Notes under the pieces: model-generated
Told to the model about the DNA's origin: nothing
Seen by the model: the letters and a program-made list of their open reading frames with translations, nothing else
Databases searched by the model: none
Part shown: piece by piece, positions 8,801-13,876 of the stretch
Position numbering within the stretch: the stretch's first letter is position 1
Layout of the letters: the number at the start of each line of letters is the position of its first letter
Translations under genes and position numbers: made by a program
Origin: Nitrososphaera viennensis EN76
GTDB taxonomy: Archaea; Thermoproteota; Nitrososphaeria; Nitrososphaerales; Nitrososphaeraceae
DNA: 32,000 nt
Assembly: GCF_000698785.1 (NCBI RefSeq)
Contig: NZ_CP007536.1
Location: 180,001-212,000 of the forward strand
Direction of reading: 5' to 3'

Positions 8801-9286
8801 GTGGTAGTAATAATAATTTCGATAGCCACGGAATTATCTCTAGTGTTAGCGCCACTTGTTGTTGTAAGCGGCACTTTGAAACCGGCTGCGGCGTTCAGGC
8901 CGCAATCTGACGAGCTGGATCCCGGCTGCAATGATGATGCCGGCAGGCATTGGGAAGCTGGAGATAGAGTTGCAAGTGTATTCTATCAGGGATTTGTAGT
9001 GGTGTTTTTATGCGAATCGTCCTCCTGGAGTGAAGAGGATAGGTATGACAAAGTAGTTTCTGTGCCAACAGTTGGCCCCCATAAGCATTCATGCTCCGCT
9101 CGTACTGATAATTTTGAAGGTGGCGGATCCGTAACAAAGACGTATGATGCAGAAGATAAAGTAGCCATGCAAAAAGAATCAAAAGATGGTGGCCTGCTGA
9201 TCCAGATATACCAATGTAAATACAAGCACGATGTGACCAACTGGGAGTTACAAGAGACGCTTCCGGCAGCTTCAGTCAGTACCTAG
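8801..9286 (+). CDS. hypothetical Cys-containing protein with hydrophobic N-terminus (weak; start unclear)
   Basis: This is the distal part of the 8543-9286 ORF. In-frame GTG at 8801 gives VVVIIISIATELSLVLAPLVVVSG followed by a polar domain of about 130 aa with 4 Cys. Codon usage is atypical. The stop shares CTAG with the convergent gene, as at four other convergent pairs. Confidence 0.3.
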   Translation: MVVIIISIATELSLVLAPLVVVSGTLKPAAAFRPQSDELDPGCNDDAGRHWEAGDRVASVFYQGFVVVFLCESSSWSEEDRYDKVVSVPTVGPHKHSCSARTDNFEGGGSVTKTYDAEDKVAMQKESKDGGLLIQIYQCKYKHDVTNWELQETLPAASVST

Positions 9287-9630
9287 AACCCTGCCTTTTT
9301 CATCTTGGAGCCGCAGTTTGGGCACGACACCTTGTTGTGCTTGGTGCCGCAGCTGATGCAGTAATAGTTGATACTGCTGCTACCTTCGCCATCCTTCTGG
9401 CCAAAGGGGTTTCCAAACAGCGAGCCCTGCCGGCCGCCGACCTGCTTCATAAAGCGGTACCTGCGATAGTACGCAAGGCCAAAGATGATTGGCAGCAGCA
9501 CCATGAGCGAGTACGGAAAGTCGATGAACATGGTGATCACGATGCTTATTGCAAAGTAGATTCCAAGCCAGAGGATCTGCTGGTACAGGAACCGCTTTGC
9601 GCCTGCGTCCATCTGTGTGTACATATCCAC
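9283..9630 (-). CDS. membrane protein with C-terminal zinc ribbon
   Basis: Two hydrophobic helices (ILWLGIYFAISIVITMFI, LMVLLPIIFGLAYY), then CISCGTKHNKVSCPNCGSKM. Confidence 0.65.
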   Translation of the reverse strand: MDMYTQMDAGAKRFLYQQILWLGIYFAISIVITMFIDFPYSLMVLLPIIFGLAYYRRYRFMKQVGGRQGSLFGNPFGQKDGEGSSSINYYCISCGTKHNKVSCPNCGSKMKKAGF

Positions 9631-9635
9631 ACGTG

Positions 9636-9815
9636 TTACATATATGTAAGCCGGGCAGCCCCTCCTTGACCTTCTTCTTCAGGCGCAAGGTGGCACATGA
9701 CGTGGCCGAGGAGCTTTTCGTGCATGTGCGCGTCCTCGTCTGACAGGAACACCGTGCTGCAGCGCTCGCAGTAAAACAGCCTGTCCTGAAGCAGCGTTCC
9801 GGAACCTTGTTCCAT
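9636..9815 (-). CDS. small C2H2-type zinc-finger protein
   Basis: I trimmed to the ATG at 9815. The product is MEQGSGTLLQDRLFYCERCSTVFLSDEDAHMHEKLLGH, which fits C-x2-C-x12-H-x5-H. Confidence 0.5.
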   Translation of the reverse strand: MEQGSGTLLQDRLFYCERCSTVFLSDEDAHMHEKLLGHVMCHLAPEEEGQGGAARLTYM

Positions 9816-9892: not shown

Positions 9893-11731
9893 TCACCCTC
9901 CCTGTCCTGCAAAAAAGTCAAGGAGCGTCCGCTGCGCCTCCTGCCTCCCGGGGTGGCTCAGGTTGGTGACGCGCAGGCCGACCTTTCGGACCGGCGCGTC
10001 AAGGTCAAACCTGTCGACCAGCTGCGGAATTGCCGCAAGGATGCTCTCGCGCCTCTGCTGCGGACCCTGGTACGACATCTCTCTCGTCTCGATGGAAAAG
10101 TCGGCCCTGACTATCTTTGCGCCCACCGTGCGAAACAGGTAGCCATGCCCTGCCACCCTGGCGTACAGCTCGTCAGAAAGGGCGGTCAGTTCTGCAAGGA
10201 CCTCCTTTCTGCCCTTTGCATGTACTTCAAGGCTGTGCTCCGTGCTTATCGAGACGTGGTCCTCCCTTGGAACGACGGGGTCGCTGTCTGCGCCTGTTGC
10301 CACCTGCCACATCCACAGGCCGTTTCTGCTGCCAAAGCGCGACGTCAGCTTTTGCACGTCGCATGCCGCAAGCTGGCCTATGGTTGCGATGCCTATCTTT
10401 TTCAGCTCCTGCTGGGTCTTGGGGCCGATGCCTGAGATCCTGCCTACCTCGAGAGGCGCAAGGAAATCCTGCAGCCTGTCAGGATAGGCCACGGTGATGT
10501 CGTCAGGCTTTTTGAAATCAGACGCTATCTTGGCCGCCGACTTGGAAGGCGCCACTCCTATCGAGACTGAAAGGCCGCACCTCTCCCTTATCGCCCTCTT
10601 GATCGACGACGCGTACTCGTAGGGGCTTGCGTCGCCGGCAGCGGCCCTTGCCGTGCAGTCCAGGAACGCCTCGTCTATGCTTGCCTGCTCTATCACGTCT
10701 GCAAACCCTGAAAGGACTTCCATCACCTTCTCGGACACTTGCTTGTAGTACGCAATGTCGACTGGCCGGAGGTCCATATCGGGGCACAGCGCCAGCGCCC
10801 TTGCAAGCGGCATGGCCGACCTGACGCCAAACCTGCGCGCCTCGTACGAGCAGGACGATACCACGCCGCGCGTTATCTTGCCGGCAGGCTGGTCAGTCAT
10901 TATCACGGCGTGCGGCCTGCCCTTGAGGGCCGGCTCGCGCAGCTCCTCGCAGGAAGGGTAAAAGGCGTTGAGGTCGACGCAGAGGATCATCCTGCTGCCT
11001 GGGGACCACCTTGGCGCAGGCACGGGCAGGGCAGGGGCAGGCATGGGGCCGGCGTACTTGCGCTCTGGCAGGCCAAGGTGCGTGAGCGCGGCGTTTGCGC
11101 CGCCCGGGCTGTCTGCGATTATTATCGACATGTCAACCTGCCCATCCTGCCCCGCTTCTTTGAGGGCCATTTCAAACTCGGCCTTCCAGTTGCCGGCGTT
11201 GCCTGAAAGCCTGAGAAAAATGAAATCCGACGTGATGGCGACAGCAGCTTCTTGTACGTTCCTTCCACTCCTCCAGTACATGGCCGCGCCGTGCCTCCTC
11301 AGTACGTTGTACGTGGTGTCTTGAAACCATGAGGGGTGGGCAAAGTCGAGGATTGCCGAGTAGCCGTGGTAGGTGGAGGTGGCAAGCACTCTGTCAAGCC
11401 AGCGCCGCCCGTCCTGAAGTGTGAGGCCCTGCGGCGTCCTTATCACCACCGCAAGCGTCTTTTCCTCTATCGGCCTGAAAGCTTCAAGCAGGTTTCCAAG
11501 CTCGACGCTATCCTCTTCTGCTGCTGCCTGCTCTGGTATCCTGACGACAAAGCGAAAGCCCTCTGGCGTCTCGTGCGCCCACCTCCAGAACGAGTGCTCG
11601 TAGGTGGCCGGCACGCCCACCTCGACGACGTCAAACACCCGGGAATAGTGGGAAAGGTACTCCCTTGGCGCAAGCGCCTGCGGGTAAAAGTTGCCAAACC
11701 TCCACCCTGCGCACCCGACGAAATGCTTCAA
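9893..11731 (-). CDS. dinB: DUF72 domain fused in-frame to Y-family DNA polymerase IV (DinB/Dpo4)
   Basis: 612-codon uninterrupted ORF. Residues 1 to about 215 look like DUF72 (FVGCAGWRFGNFYPQALAPREYLSHYSRVFDVVEV). A Pro-rich linker PMPAPALPVPAPRW follows. From M248 (ATG 10990) the product is MILCVDLNAFYPSCEELR...SSCSYEARRFGVRSAMP...SIDEAFLD, a canonical DinB/Dpo4 palm. Confidence 0.85.
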   Translation of the reverse strand: MKHFVGCAGWRFGNFYPQALAPREYLSHYSRVFDVVEVGVPATYEHSFWRWAHETPEGFRFVVRIPEQAAAEEDSVELGNLLEAFRPIEEKTLAVVIRTPQGLTLQDGRRWLDRVLATSTYHGYSAILDFAHPSWFQDTTYNVLRRHGAAMYWRSGRNVQEAAVAITSDFIFLRLSGNAGNWKAEFEMALKEAGQDGQVDMSIIIADSPGGANAALTHLGLPERKYAGPMPAPALPVPAPRWSPGSRMILCVDLNAFYPSCEELREPALKGRPHAVIMTDQPAGKITRGVVSSCSYEARRFGVRSAMPLARALALCPDMDLRPVDIAYYKQVSEKVMEVLSGFADVIEQASIDEAFLDCTARAAAGDASPYEYASSIKRAIRERCGLSVSIGVAPSKSAAKIASDFKKPDDITVAYPDRLQDFLAPLEVGRISGIGPKTQQELKKIGIATIGQLAACDVQKLTSRFGSRNGLWMWQVATGADSDPVVPREDHVSISTEHSLEVHAKGRKEVLAELTALSDELYARVAGHGYLFRTVGAKIVRADFSIETREMSYQGPQQRRESILAAIPQLVDRFDLDAPVRKVGLRVTNLSHPGRQEAQRTLLDFFAGQGG

Positions 11732-11799
11732 GTGCAGAGAAGCTTGCTCCGGCCCTTATAACGTGGGAGACACTCTCGGGAGAGGGGGAGAGATGCATC

Positions 11800-11952
11800 T
11801 CAGGCCGCGCCCAGCCCTGTCCTCTCTGCATACTCGATTGCAGGGTGGCAAGAATAGCAGTAGCTGCACCGGATGCACGAGTATGCTGTGCGCTTGCCGC
11901 ACCACTTGCATTCGCTATACCTTGGCTTTAACGGTGAGAGGTACTCGTGCAT
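11800..11952 (-). CDS. small Cys-rich zinc-binding protein (weak)
   Basis: 50 codons from the ATG at 11952: MHEYLSPLKPRYSECKWCGKRTAYSCIRCSYCYSCHP, with CxxC and CxxCxxCxxC motifs. Confidence 0.4.
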   Translation of the reverse strand: MHEYLSPLKPRYSECKWCGKRTAYSCIRCSYCYSCHPAIEYAERTGLGAA

Positions 11953-12040
11953 GTATACATTAGATGATTGTCGATTCTGATAAATGACCTTTTCCCTCAC
12001 GCAGGTTCAAATACCTGCCAGTGGCAACCACTGCTATTCT

Positions 12041-12529
12041 ATGCCAACTGCCAAGATTCAGACAAAGCACGGCGACATCGCGATCGAGTTCTTCCCCGAC
12101 GTTGCACCCAAGCACGTCGAGAATTTCAGAAAGCTTGCCTCTAGCGGCTTTTTCGATGGCACGCTCTTCCACAGGATAGTGCCCGGGTTTGTGATCCAGG
12201 GAGGCGACCCTCTGACAAAGAGCGCGGCAAACAAGGGCCGGTGGGGAACAGGCGGCCCGGGATGGAGCGTAAAAGCCGAGTTCAACAAGACCAAGCACTC
12301 GCGGGGAGTGCTGTCGATGGCCCGGGCGATGGACCCAAACAGCGCCGGCTCGCAGTTCTTTATCGTCCTGAAGGACTCTAACTTTCTCGACGGCCAGTAC
12401 ACCGTCTTTGGCAAGGTGACATCCGGCATGGACGTTGTCGACAAGATTGCAGCCCTGAAAACGGACGCAAACGATGCGCCGGCAGACCCCGAGCAGGCAA
12501 GGATGGTTAAAGTCACGTACAGCGACTAG
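12041..12529 (+). CDS. cyclophilin-type peptidyl-prolyl cis-trans isomerase
   Basis: From the ATG at 12041: MPTAKIQTKHGDIAIEFFPDVAPKHVENFRKL...FHRIVPGFVIQGGDP...GSQFFI. Confidence 0.9.
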   Translation: MPTAKIQTKHGDIAIEFFPDVAPKHVENFRKLASSGFFDGTLFHRIVPGFVIQGGDPLTKSAANKGRWGTGGPGWSVKAEFNKTKHSRGVLSMARAMDPNSAGSQFFIVLKDSNFLDGQYTVFGKVTSGMDVVDKIAALKTDANDAPADPEQARMVKVTYSD

Positions 12530-13191: not shown

Positions 13192-13270
13192 TTTTATGAC
13201 AACGAGATGTGAATAAATCTGGATGGGATCTGGAAAAATGGTTTTAATAATGACGGCCGCTGGTTTGCAC

Positions 13271-13876
13271 ATGAACAAGCGCGTCACAATAGCGGCGATC
13301 GTCGCAGCGGCCATCTTGGTGCCGGCGACGGTGTACGCCGCATCTCCTCTCTTTATCACGACCATGATAGACGAGCCGTCGCCTATCGCAAACGCTGGTG
13401 ACGCGATGATGGCAGAAAAAAATGAAGAGGATGCGATGGCAGACGACAACGACCGGAAGCCGGATGGCACGATGATGTCCAAGGACGAGGCAGAAATTGA
13501 CAAAGGCTCGACTGAAGATGATGCTATGATGAAGGACAAGGTGCTTGTTGAGACAGGCGGGACGTTTGCAGGCGCCGGCGACGGCTTTCACAACGCGGAA
13601 GGGACTGCAAGGGTGCTGCACCTGGGCAGCGGCAGCTCTGTTTTGAGGCTTGAAGAATTCAAGGTCACAAACGGCCCCGACCTCTACGTGTACCTCTCTG
13701 CCGACAAAAGCAACGCCGACTATGTCAGCCTCGGGAGGCTCAAGGCCAGCAGCGGCAACCAGAACTACGACCTGCCAGACGGAATAGACCTCTCAAGGTA
13801 CGACAACGTGATAATCTGGTGCCAGTCGTTCTCGGTCTACTTTGGCGGGGCGCAGCTCACCACTACTTCTGCGTGA
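13271..13876 (+). CDS. secreted DM13 (electron-transfer) domain protein with Met/Asp-rich linker
   Basis: From the ATG at 13271: signal peptide MNKRVTIAAIVAAAILVPATVYA, then linker GDAMMAEKNEEDAMADDNDRKPDGTMMSKDEAEIDKGSTEDDAMMKDK. The DM13 pattern follows: GTFAGAGDGFHNAEGTARVL...LRLEEFKVTNGPDLYVYLS. Confidence 0.7.
   Translation: MNKRVTIAAIVAAAILVPATVYAASPLFITTMIDEPSPIANAGDAMMAEKNEEDAMADDNDRKPDGTMMSKDEAEIDKGSTEDDAMMKDKVLVETGGTFAGAGDGFHNAEGTARVLHLGSGSSVLRLEEFKVTNGPDLYVYLSADKSNADYVSLGRLKASSGNQNYDLPDGIDLSRYDNVIIWCQSFSVYFGGAQLTTTSA

Follow-up and report, generated by a model that had tools for sequence, protein, structure and literature searches.

A diverged DUF72 barrel fused to a DinB-type translesion polymerase in Nitrososphaera viennensis, with a possible accessory role

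Why would a Y-family translesion polymerase of an archaeon carry a DUF72 domain at its N-terminus, and does that domain still work as an enzyme? The question is raised by a single gene in a 32,000-nucleotide stretch of Nitrososphaera viennensis EN76 (contig NZ_CP007536.1, positions 180,001 to 212,000), hereafter the window. An open reading frame (ORF) on the minus strand, at 9893-11731, runs for 612 codons from a TTG start to a stop at 9893-9895. The initial annotation had described it as one ORF joining DUF72 to a complete DinB, and this is borne out by Pfam matches to both halves and by an above-threshold match to a DNA polymerase IV family. Our answer, which we hold with middling confidence, is that the product is a translesion polymerase tethered to PCNA, in which the DUF72-derived barrel serves as a non-catalytic accessory module. 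The parts of the gene are as follows.

9893..11731, minus strand: the whole gene, comprising DUF72-like barrel, linker, DinB/Pol IV core and PCNA-interacting peptide (PIP) box (ORF, Pfam, NCBIfam, homologues)
11048..11731, minus strand: DUF72-derived (beta-alpha)8 TIM barrel, residues 1-228 (Pfam, AlphaFold 2, Foldseek, residue comparison)
11009..11047, minus strand: Pro-rich flexible linker, residues 229-241, PMPAPALPVPAPR (AlphaFold 2 confidence, family linker lengths)
9935..11008, minus strand: DinB/Pol IV (Y-family) core, residues 242-599 (Pfam, NCBIfam, alignments, solved relatives)
9911..9934, minus strand: PIP box QRTLLDFF, residues 600-607, predicted to bind PCNA (alignment, shuffled-tail control)

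PF01904 (DUF72) matches residues 16-178 with an E value of 4.6e-23 and 82.9 bits against a cut-off of 25.3, which upholds the DUF72 identity proposed for the N-terminal half; the match spans only positions 1-164 of the 217 in the profile and thus falls short of full-length coverage. In the other half, IMS (PF00817) matches residues 252-405 (E 2.3e-43, 148 bits, cut-off 23.2), IMS_HHH residues 417-448 and IMS_C (PF11799) residues 494-597 (58.7 bits, cut-off 20.7), and the NCBIfam equivalog PRK02406 (DNA polymerase IV) scores 273.4 bits with a cut-off of 256. The Pro-rich stretch quoted in the initial annotation, PMPAPALPVPAPRWSPGS, is found at residues 229-246, and the Met of MILCVDLNAFY is residue 248 (ATG at 10990-10988, minus strand), both located as described. 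Across the fused family the linker measures 4-34 residues (median 11), and it is Pro-rich among the aligned Nitrososphaera sequences; YAGPMPAPALPVPAPR is an example of a peptide spanning the linker of the fusion protein. The full-length AlphaFold 2 (AF2) model has a predicted local distance difference test score (pLDDT) of 85 and a predicted template-modelling score (pTM) of 0.50, with linker residues 229-237 below a pLDDT of 50. The model fits two modules joined by a flexible tether.

The architecture is by no means peculiar to this genome. A search with the full-length protein returned 4,863 relatives, and nearly all of the 120 best, from which the architecture was read, are 580-730 residues long and carry PF01904 together with PF00817, at identities down to 46%; the combination of DUF72 with IMS thus recurs as a Pfam architecture. 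More than 100 protein clusters carry the DUF72-DinB fusion. In the databases the fused relatives are named "DNA polymerase IV" of Nitrososphaera, Nitrososphaeraceae or Nitrosopolaris, a label that hides the extra N-terminal domain. A scan of species-representative genomes gave 560 related stretches, and the locus counts below refer to the best 80 of these. By hidden Markov model (HMM) scan, both domains fall within one ORF in 55 of the 80 loci, and these 55 are labelled Nitrososphaera, Candidatus Nitrosopolaris, Candidatus Nitrosocosmicus, unclassified Nitrososphaeraceae or Nitrososphaerales. Orthologues are therefore mostly fused and not uniformly so, since about 20 loci hold DinB alone. Such recurrence lies far beyond chance or sequencing error.

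The polymerase half opens at an invariant W242-x-G-[RK] motif. Stand-alone DinB relatives keep it too, so it is there that the DinB module proper begins. The catalytic carboxylates D253, D353 and E354, the last two within an SIDEA motif, are invariant in 49 homologues, as is F257. The steric gate is at position Y258, and the aromatic pair F257-Y258 aligns with the FF of 7yll; the little finger comprises residues 494-597. The closest solved structures are 7yll (Pol IV, E 8e-56), followed by 4irc and 1jx4, which represent bacterial and archaeal Pol IV, DinB and Dpo4. With these the window protein shares palm, fingers, thumb and little finger, the catalytic carboxylates (Asp and Asp-Glu), a clamp-binding motif at the C-terminus and an aromatic steric gate; it differs in its TIM barrel of about 228 residues at the N-terminus, its TTG start and an Asn in place of the second Asp of D-x-D. 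That strand-1 motif reads D-L-N here (VDLNAFY, residues 253-255, approximately 10967-10975). At least 90% of the fused family have Asn255, and a few members retain Asp. Of 106 fused homologues, 97% have a relaxed PIP motif among their last 20 residues, as against 1.7% of shuffled tails. From these sequence features we conclude that the polymerase half is in all likelihood a functional, PCNA-tethered Y-family polymerase.

The N-terminal half is predicted with confidence as a complete barrel. When residues 1-235 were modelled by AF2 from an alignment of fused and stand-alone sequences, the pLDDT was 89.7 and the pTM 0.88, and the model contains eight strands (2-7, 35-39, 60-65, 92-98, 126-129, 150-154, 170-175 and 201-206) and eight helices, a full (beta-alpha)8 set. 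The truncated barrel hinted at by the partial Pfam match was rejected on this ground; if the model is right, the C-terminal part is too diverged for the profile and not missing. Foldseek against the PDB places two DUF72 structures first, 1vpq (TM1631; E 1e-12, template-modelling score 0.74) and 1vpy (EF0366; 0.72), after which the list gives xylose-isomerase-like barrels and MbnB. Chains of UVDE or Endo IV are absent from the top 50 matches. With DUF72/YecE/UPF0759 the window barrel thus shares the fold, an above-cut-off Pfam score and the motifs GCxGW, FYP, W51, FRF and SW135. It differs in being some 30-60 residues shorter, fused, acidic and not basic, and matched over profile positions 1-164 of 217 only, and it is without the canonical TFYR, ITH, R of EfRH, RlHG and NNH motifs. 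With UVDE and Endonuclease IV (AP endonuclease 2, xylose-isomerase-like) the TIM-barrel superfold is shared, the relationship itself being taken from the literature (PMC3828134, PMC11791011).

Despite this fold the barrel has moved a considerable distance from its stand-alone relatives. A word-indexed search with the isolated barrel finds stand-alone DUF72/YecE proteins weakly, at 25-31% identity and E values of 1e-8 to 1e-4, and an exhaustive search gives 1,155 matches with just 8 below 1e-30. The C-terminal ends of the strands are the usual active face of a TIM barrel. Alignment of 115 stand-alone DUF72 proteins with 49 fused barrels defined a near-invariant polar set in the former (E, K, T-H, Q, E-x-R-H, D, R-x-H and N-N), much of which is altered in the latter:

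E of strand 2: stand-alone DUF72 100%; fused, E in 76%
K of strand 3: stand-alone DUF72 95%; fused, K in 27% and R in 73%
H after strand 3: stand-alone DUF72 93%; fused 0%
Q of strand 4: stand-alone DUF72 95%; fused 51%
E of strand 5: stand-alone DUF72 95%; fused 63%
R two residues past the strand-5 E: stand-alone DUF72 94%; fused 0%
R of strand 7: stand-alone DUF72 97%; fused 82%
N of strand 8: stand-alone DUF72 76%; fused 0%

In the window barrel four of eleven hallmarks are unchanged (E37, H132, R174 and D207) and two are conservatively replaced (R64 and D129). The other five are lost (H to A71, Q to R98, R to A131, D to S155 and H to S176), so that the canonical set is broken. Hallmark positions also vary from clade to clade across the 55 fused loci: at the strand-2 E position Nitrosocosmicus has H and one clade of Nitrososphaera has A or S, and the strand-4 Q is replaced by E, S, H, R or P. 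The charge has shifted as well, the median isoelectric point (pI) being 6.2 (acidic to neutral) for fused barrels and 8.8 (basic) for stand-alone DUF72; for the window barrel it is 5.9, with a net charge of -5.

Both halves are nevertheless under purifying selection. Pairwise ratios of nonsynonymous to synonymous substitution (dN/dS) are 0.13-0.46 for the N-terminal domain, with a median of about 0.18, and 0.05-0.27 for the DinB part; because of the former values the barrel is probably still functional and not junk. The fused clade has also acquired invariant residues lacking in stand-alone DUF72, namely R60, G79, E83, E89, W111, C119 and Y121, together with H122, G123, Y124, S125, Q137, D138 and W153. 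E89, K91, the YHGYS loop, T167 and D169 lie just before strands 4, 5 and 7, from which we infer that in the predicted fold they would occupy the barrel face opposite the active face.

The origin of this diverged domain may be sought in three fusions from other Nitrososphaerales whose barrel is a complete, canonical DUF72 (L055:3195-5237, L056:948-2909 and L060:3962-5968). These match the profile over positions 1-217 of 217 at about 180 bits and keep the hallmarks, unlike the window barrel, and they share with the window protein its architecture and its DinB clade, the polymerase parts being 39-40% identical. L055 derives from one metagenome-assembled genome (MAG), and L056 and L060 from another. 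The barrels of L056 and L055 are 66% identical to the stand-alone protein P0148, which belongs to the group (P0147-P0149) that also supplies the best stand-alone relatives of the window barrel. We consider it likely that the canonical fusions represent the ancestral state of the window type. MAG MFD05674.bin.1.171 holds three fused paralogues (L045, L056 and L060).

At the other extreme, the approximately 20 loci with DinB alone have no DUF72 within 4 kb, and several loci preserve intermediate stages. A decayed, out-of-frame remnant of the barrel lies upstream of DinB in L077 (3572-3853); only the last strand and helix are retained in frame in L074 (1328-1465), and only the last helix in L062 (2521-2583); an internal deletion in L052 (3998-5281) fuses barrel residues 1-57 straight to DinB. 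The converse, a complete window-type barrel without DinB, was never found; the candidates P0121 (240 residues) and P0140 (232 residues) were rejected as free-standing barrels, as they end in or just after the domain, without a tail, and look like fragments. The barrel is thus dependent on DinB yet dispensable in some lineages. Canonical stand-alone DUF72 genes are common in Nitrososphaeraceae, and in one lineage (L034 and L084-86) such a gene, of 291 residues, lies 2.7 kb downstream of the fused gene on the same contig (L034:5752-6636, L084/L085:8001-8876); both forms therefore coexist in one genome. In a neighbour-joining, midpoint-rooted tree of the DinB parts among the 80 loci, fused forms occur in every major clade, and stand-alone forms make up two clades and scattered singletons nested among them. 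On the most parsimonious account, a bona fide DUF72 was fused to DinB on one ancient occasion, after which its barrel diverged in most lineages and disappeared from some. One archaeal family thereby displays a gradient from canonical through degenerate to lost barrel.

On these data we propose the following course of events. A bona fide DUF72 enzyme would have joined DinB once, in an ancestor of the Nitrososphaeraceae, the founder being of the type whose closest stand-alone relatives carry clamp-binding tails of their own. A few lineages would have retained a canonical barrel. In most, that of the window included, the fold and purifying selection would have persisted while the barrel lost or varied about half of its canonical active-face residues, became shorter and turned acidic. 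The window barrel would then no longer perform the canonical DUF72 reaction and would act as an accessory module of the polymerase, and DinB would carry out lesion bypass or gap filling on PCNA. In most lineages the barrel ends 4-14 residues from palm strand 1 and should therefore lie near the entrance of the active-site cleft, where it might bind phosphate or a lesion, gate access or recruit a partner. An analogy is offered by the N-clasp of Pol kappa and the BRCT domain and N-digit of Rev1, which are likewise extra N-terminal elements near the active-site entrance of a DinB-type core and which modulate DNA binding or recruitment. The likeness is one of position: their folds are unrelated to the barrel, sequence similarity is nil, and contacts of the barrel with DNA or polymerase are hypothetical. 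The main translesion polymerase of these abundant soil nitrifiers thus has an unusual architecture, and its extra N-terminal domain may regulate the polymerase.

Several considerations weigh against a non-catalytic accessory barrel of this ancestry, which is itself inferred. What we have called canonical active-site residues are near-invariant polar positions at strand C-termini across the family, and no experiment has, to our knowledge, established which residues of DUF72 are catalytic. Within the genus-level clade of the window, E37, R60, R64, D/E129, H132 and R174 are invariant, and judging by their conservation they could form a metal- and phosphate-binding site with residual or altered catalysis. 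The full-length AF2 model, with its pTM of 0.50, fixes no placement of the barrel relative to the polymerase. The single ancestral fusion, too, is a parsimony argument, because the tree was midpoint-rooted without an outgroup.

The second of these points leads directly to the strongest alternative, in which the barrel remains an active nuclease of the Endo IV or UVDE kind, or a related phosphoesterase, with a remodelled site, and the protein is a bifunctional repair enzyme. The barrel would incise or trim at a lesion and the tethered DinB would extend the resulting 3'-OH, much as in PolX-PHP or LigD. In bacterial and archaeal PolX-PHP and in LigD (Pol-PE-Lig), a metal-dependent phosphoesterase domain couples end processing or incision to gap filling, and a polymerase and a phosphoesterase-fold domain share one chain as they would here. 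These systems differ in that the polymerase is of the X or archaeo-eukaryotic primase (AEP) type and not Y, the partner fold is PHP or PE and not a DUF72 barrel, and activity of the barrel is doubtful in the present case. The complete, confidently predicted fold and the purifying selection would suit an active enzyme, as would the retention in the window's clade of E37, D129, H132, D207, R60, R64 and R174. A coupled activity probably existed at the origin, given the canonical fusions in L055, L056 and L060, and published predictions make DUF72 a nuclease resembling Endo IV or UVDE (PMC3828134, PMC11791011). Against this stand the loss of five of eleven hallmarks and the free variation of these positions among fused clades (E37 to A, S or H), which is atypical of a catalytic site; the acidity of the barrel beside the basic stand-alone DUF72; the repeated loss of the barrel while DinB was kept; and the coexistence of canonical stand-alone DUF72 in the family. 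On balance we regard an active barrel as a serious contender, albeit an unlikely one.

The initial annotation had further argued, from the fusion as such, that DUF72 acts in DNA damage processing. This Rosetta-stone argument is reasonable and has support at the level of the family, from the canonical DUF72-DinB clade, from clamp-like tails of stand-alone DUF72 proteins and from a rare fusion of DUF72 to an alkyltransferase-like (ATL) domain; the window copy itself, with four of eleven hallmarks, is a diverged derivative, and the argument therefore rests on the family and not on the window protein alone. For the same reason the family-level story is of more interest than the single gene. DUF72/YecE proteins are spread widely through bacteria and archaea and have had crystal structures since 2004. 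They are among the oldest orphan families, and the fusion ties them to a lesion-bypass polymerase. In the literature searched we found no experimental function for DUF72, only computational predictions. For Tm1631 the prediction was a DNA-binding endonuclease akin to Endo IV (PMC3828134, PMC4939058), with Lys73 as a computational residue-level proposal (PMC4939058), and we found no other published proposal of that kind for DUF72. A 2025 in-silico study found DUF72 genes enriched beside polB2 and called the fold UVDE-related (PMC11791011). A link between DUF72 and DNA repair is thus not new, having been predicted from structure (PMC3828134) and from polB2 neighbourhoods (PMC11791011). The DUF72-DinB fusion receives no mention in the literature searched, the genome papers on ammonia-oxidizing archaea included, which list the gene merely as a repair polymerase (PMC4084955, PMC7554672); apparently neither the fusion nor its distribution nor its gradient of states has been described before.

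Among the 120 stand-alone DUF72 proteins nearest the fused barrel, 22% carry a clamp-binding-like motif in the last 14 residues, a rate that falls to 0.9% in interior windows and to 1.9% in shuffled tails, relaxed motifs being used throughout. Some tails are of the PIP type (KQSLISDFFK, GQRSLADFG) and others of the bacterial Q-x-x-L-F type (TQRTLF, PQQKLF); KQSLISDFF is the tail of the P0148-type proteins. They occur in P0148, P0149, P0152-P0155, P0161-P0165, P0186, P0187 and others, and also in P0287-P0292 and further proteins. In stand-alone DUF72 of Nitrososphaeraceae, Q-x-x-[LIM], again a relaxed motif, is present within the last 12 residues in 66%, against 19% of shuffled sequences. In the ATL fusion (P0220; L088:438-1523 and L089:521-1606, two metagenome contigs) a canonical DUF72 of 228 bits is joined to PF01035, the ATL domain being of the lesion-binding type with PWWRV replacing PCHRV. 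No further DUF72-ATL fusion or adjacency was found among 80 relatives by metagenome scan and tblastn, and this fusion is a rare singleton.

The clamp-like tails, the ATL fusion and the published polB2 enrichment are hints on which a broader and more tentative reading may be based. In it DUF72 is a clamp-associated, lesion-processing enzyme and a partner of translesion or repair polymerases, and the window barrel is a pseudo-nuclease specialised to sense lesions or phosphate or to gate the access of the error-prone DinB to DNA on PCNA. We think this somewhat less probable than an active barrel. Were it true, the fusion in Nitrososphaeraceae would record a partnership between DUF72 and polymerase that is still canonical in L055, L056 and L060. 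The L055-type fusion, the window-type fusion and the stand-alone DinB offer a comparison set for the function of DUF72.

The barrel might also be no more than evolutionary debris, the decaying remains of a domain that has no function of its own and is bound to be lost. Lost hallmark residues agree with such a course, as do the repeated truncation, decay and loss seen in L052, L062, L074, L077 and the two stand-alone clades. A dN/dS of about 0.18, a complete barrel confidently predicted by AF2, invariant residues peculiar to the fused clade and the retention of the barrel in every major genus all speak against it, and we consider debris improbable.

The start of the gene bears on one further alternative. 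The relevant features are these.

11729..11731, minus strand: TTG start codon (ORF, comparison of homologous positions)
11756..11761, minus strand: TTATAA, a TATA-like box 24 nt before the TTG (read from the sequence; putative promoter)

Across genera, about 50 of the 55 fused loci start with TTG at the homologous position; ATG replaces it in L006, L036 and L054, and L046 has GTG. Such conservation of a weak start could hold the level of a mutagenic polymerase low. In loci of the genus Nitrososphaera a TATA-like GTTATAAG or GTTATATC is kept 24-29 nt upstream of the TTG, a spacing suggestive of an archaeal transcript with a very short leader or none. A C-rich motif (ccccctctc or cccctccc) is kept approximately 15-25 nt upstream of the TATA-like box in the window (11756-11800, minus strand) and in other Nitrososphaera loci; its place is the gap separating the fusion gene from the zinc-finger ORF upstream, and a regulator could bind there.

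The initial annotation had allowed for an internal start at ATG 10990, and a working 41-kDa stand-alone DinB might be made from it, the long form being minor or non-functional. The ATG falls seven residues after W242, and in natural stand-alone DinBs the start lies a short way before the same W-x-G-[RK] motif. Homologues do not conserve the Met, however, many of them reading GRVVACVD, GRAVACID or GRVVICVD instead, and the 70 nt preceding the ATG, which are GC-rich and coding, contain no TATA-like element, whereas the TTG at 11731 has one at the canonical distance. For these reasons an internal promoter or start at 10990 was rejected. Since the N-terminal domain is moreover in frame with DinB and under purifying selection in more than 50 loci, we see very little prospect of two products, slightly less even than of a debris domain.

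The fusion could also be artefactual, produced by faulty assembly, by a frameshift (the possibility that the initial annotation raised for the junction) or by gene calling that read through two neighbouring genes. We consider the chance of this practically nil: a few loci from long-read MAGs (L058, L056) do carry frameshifts, but the same continuous ORF is present in 55 independently assembled loci and in protein clusters numbering more than 100, and database records place the identical protein on 29 contigs, one of them of 2,527,938 bp. As the fusion is kept across a whole archaeal family, comparative evidence excludes the artefact and resequencing of the junction is unnecessary.

The neighbouring genes in the window are listed below.

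11800..11952, minus strand: 50-residue Cys-rich (zinc-ribbon-like) ORF, immediately upstream (13 Nitrososphaera loci, 51-85% identity; no Pfam match)
9636..9815, minus strand: 59-residue C2H2-like zinc-finger ORF, downstream (10 loci; sub-threshold Pfam matches only, DUF7128 and TFIIH C1-like)
9283..9630, minus strand: 115-residue membrane protein with a C-terminal zinc ribbon, the next gene downstream (syntenic in 7 loci)
11984-12529, plus strand: cyclophilin-type peptidyl-prolyl isomerase (PPIase), syntenic with the fusion gene across the genus Nitrososphaera, with a TetR gene next to it in L001
12526-13152, minus strand: TetR-family regulator
13223-13876, plus strand: DM13-domain protein, a neighbour of the fusion gene

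The two small zinc-finger ORFs said to flank the gene are indeed present on the minus strand and conserved. Together with the membrane protein they are conserved in unchanged order, the Cys-rich ORF in 13 loci of Nitrososphaera, the C2H2-like ORF in 10 and the membrane protein in 7; none of the three has a significant Pfam family, and all are absent from Nitrosopolaris and Nitrosocosmicus loci. The PPIase, TetR and DM13 genes have no evident link to DNA repair. A repair operon was rejected, as synteny is limited to the small zinc-finger ORFs, the cyclophilin and TetR, within the genus Nitrososphaera. Loci of the Nitrosopolaris type have different neighbours around the fusion gene; on one such contig a Ku-domain gene (L002:1989-2633) lies 2.4 kb upstream of it, and a bacterial-type non-homologous end-joining system has been reported from Nitrososphaerales (PMC7554672).

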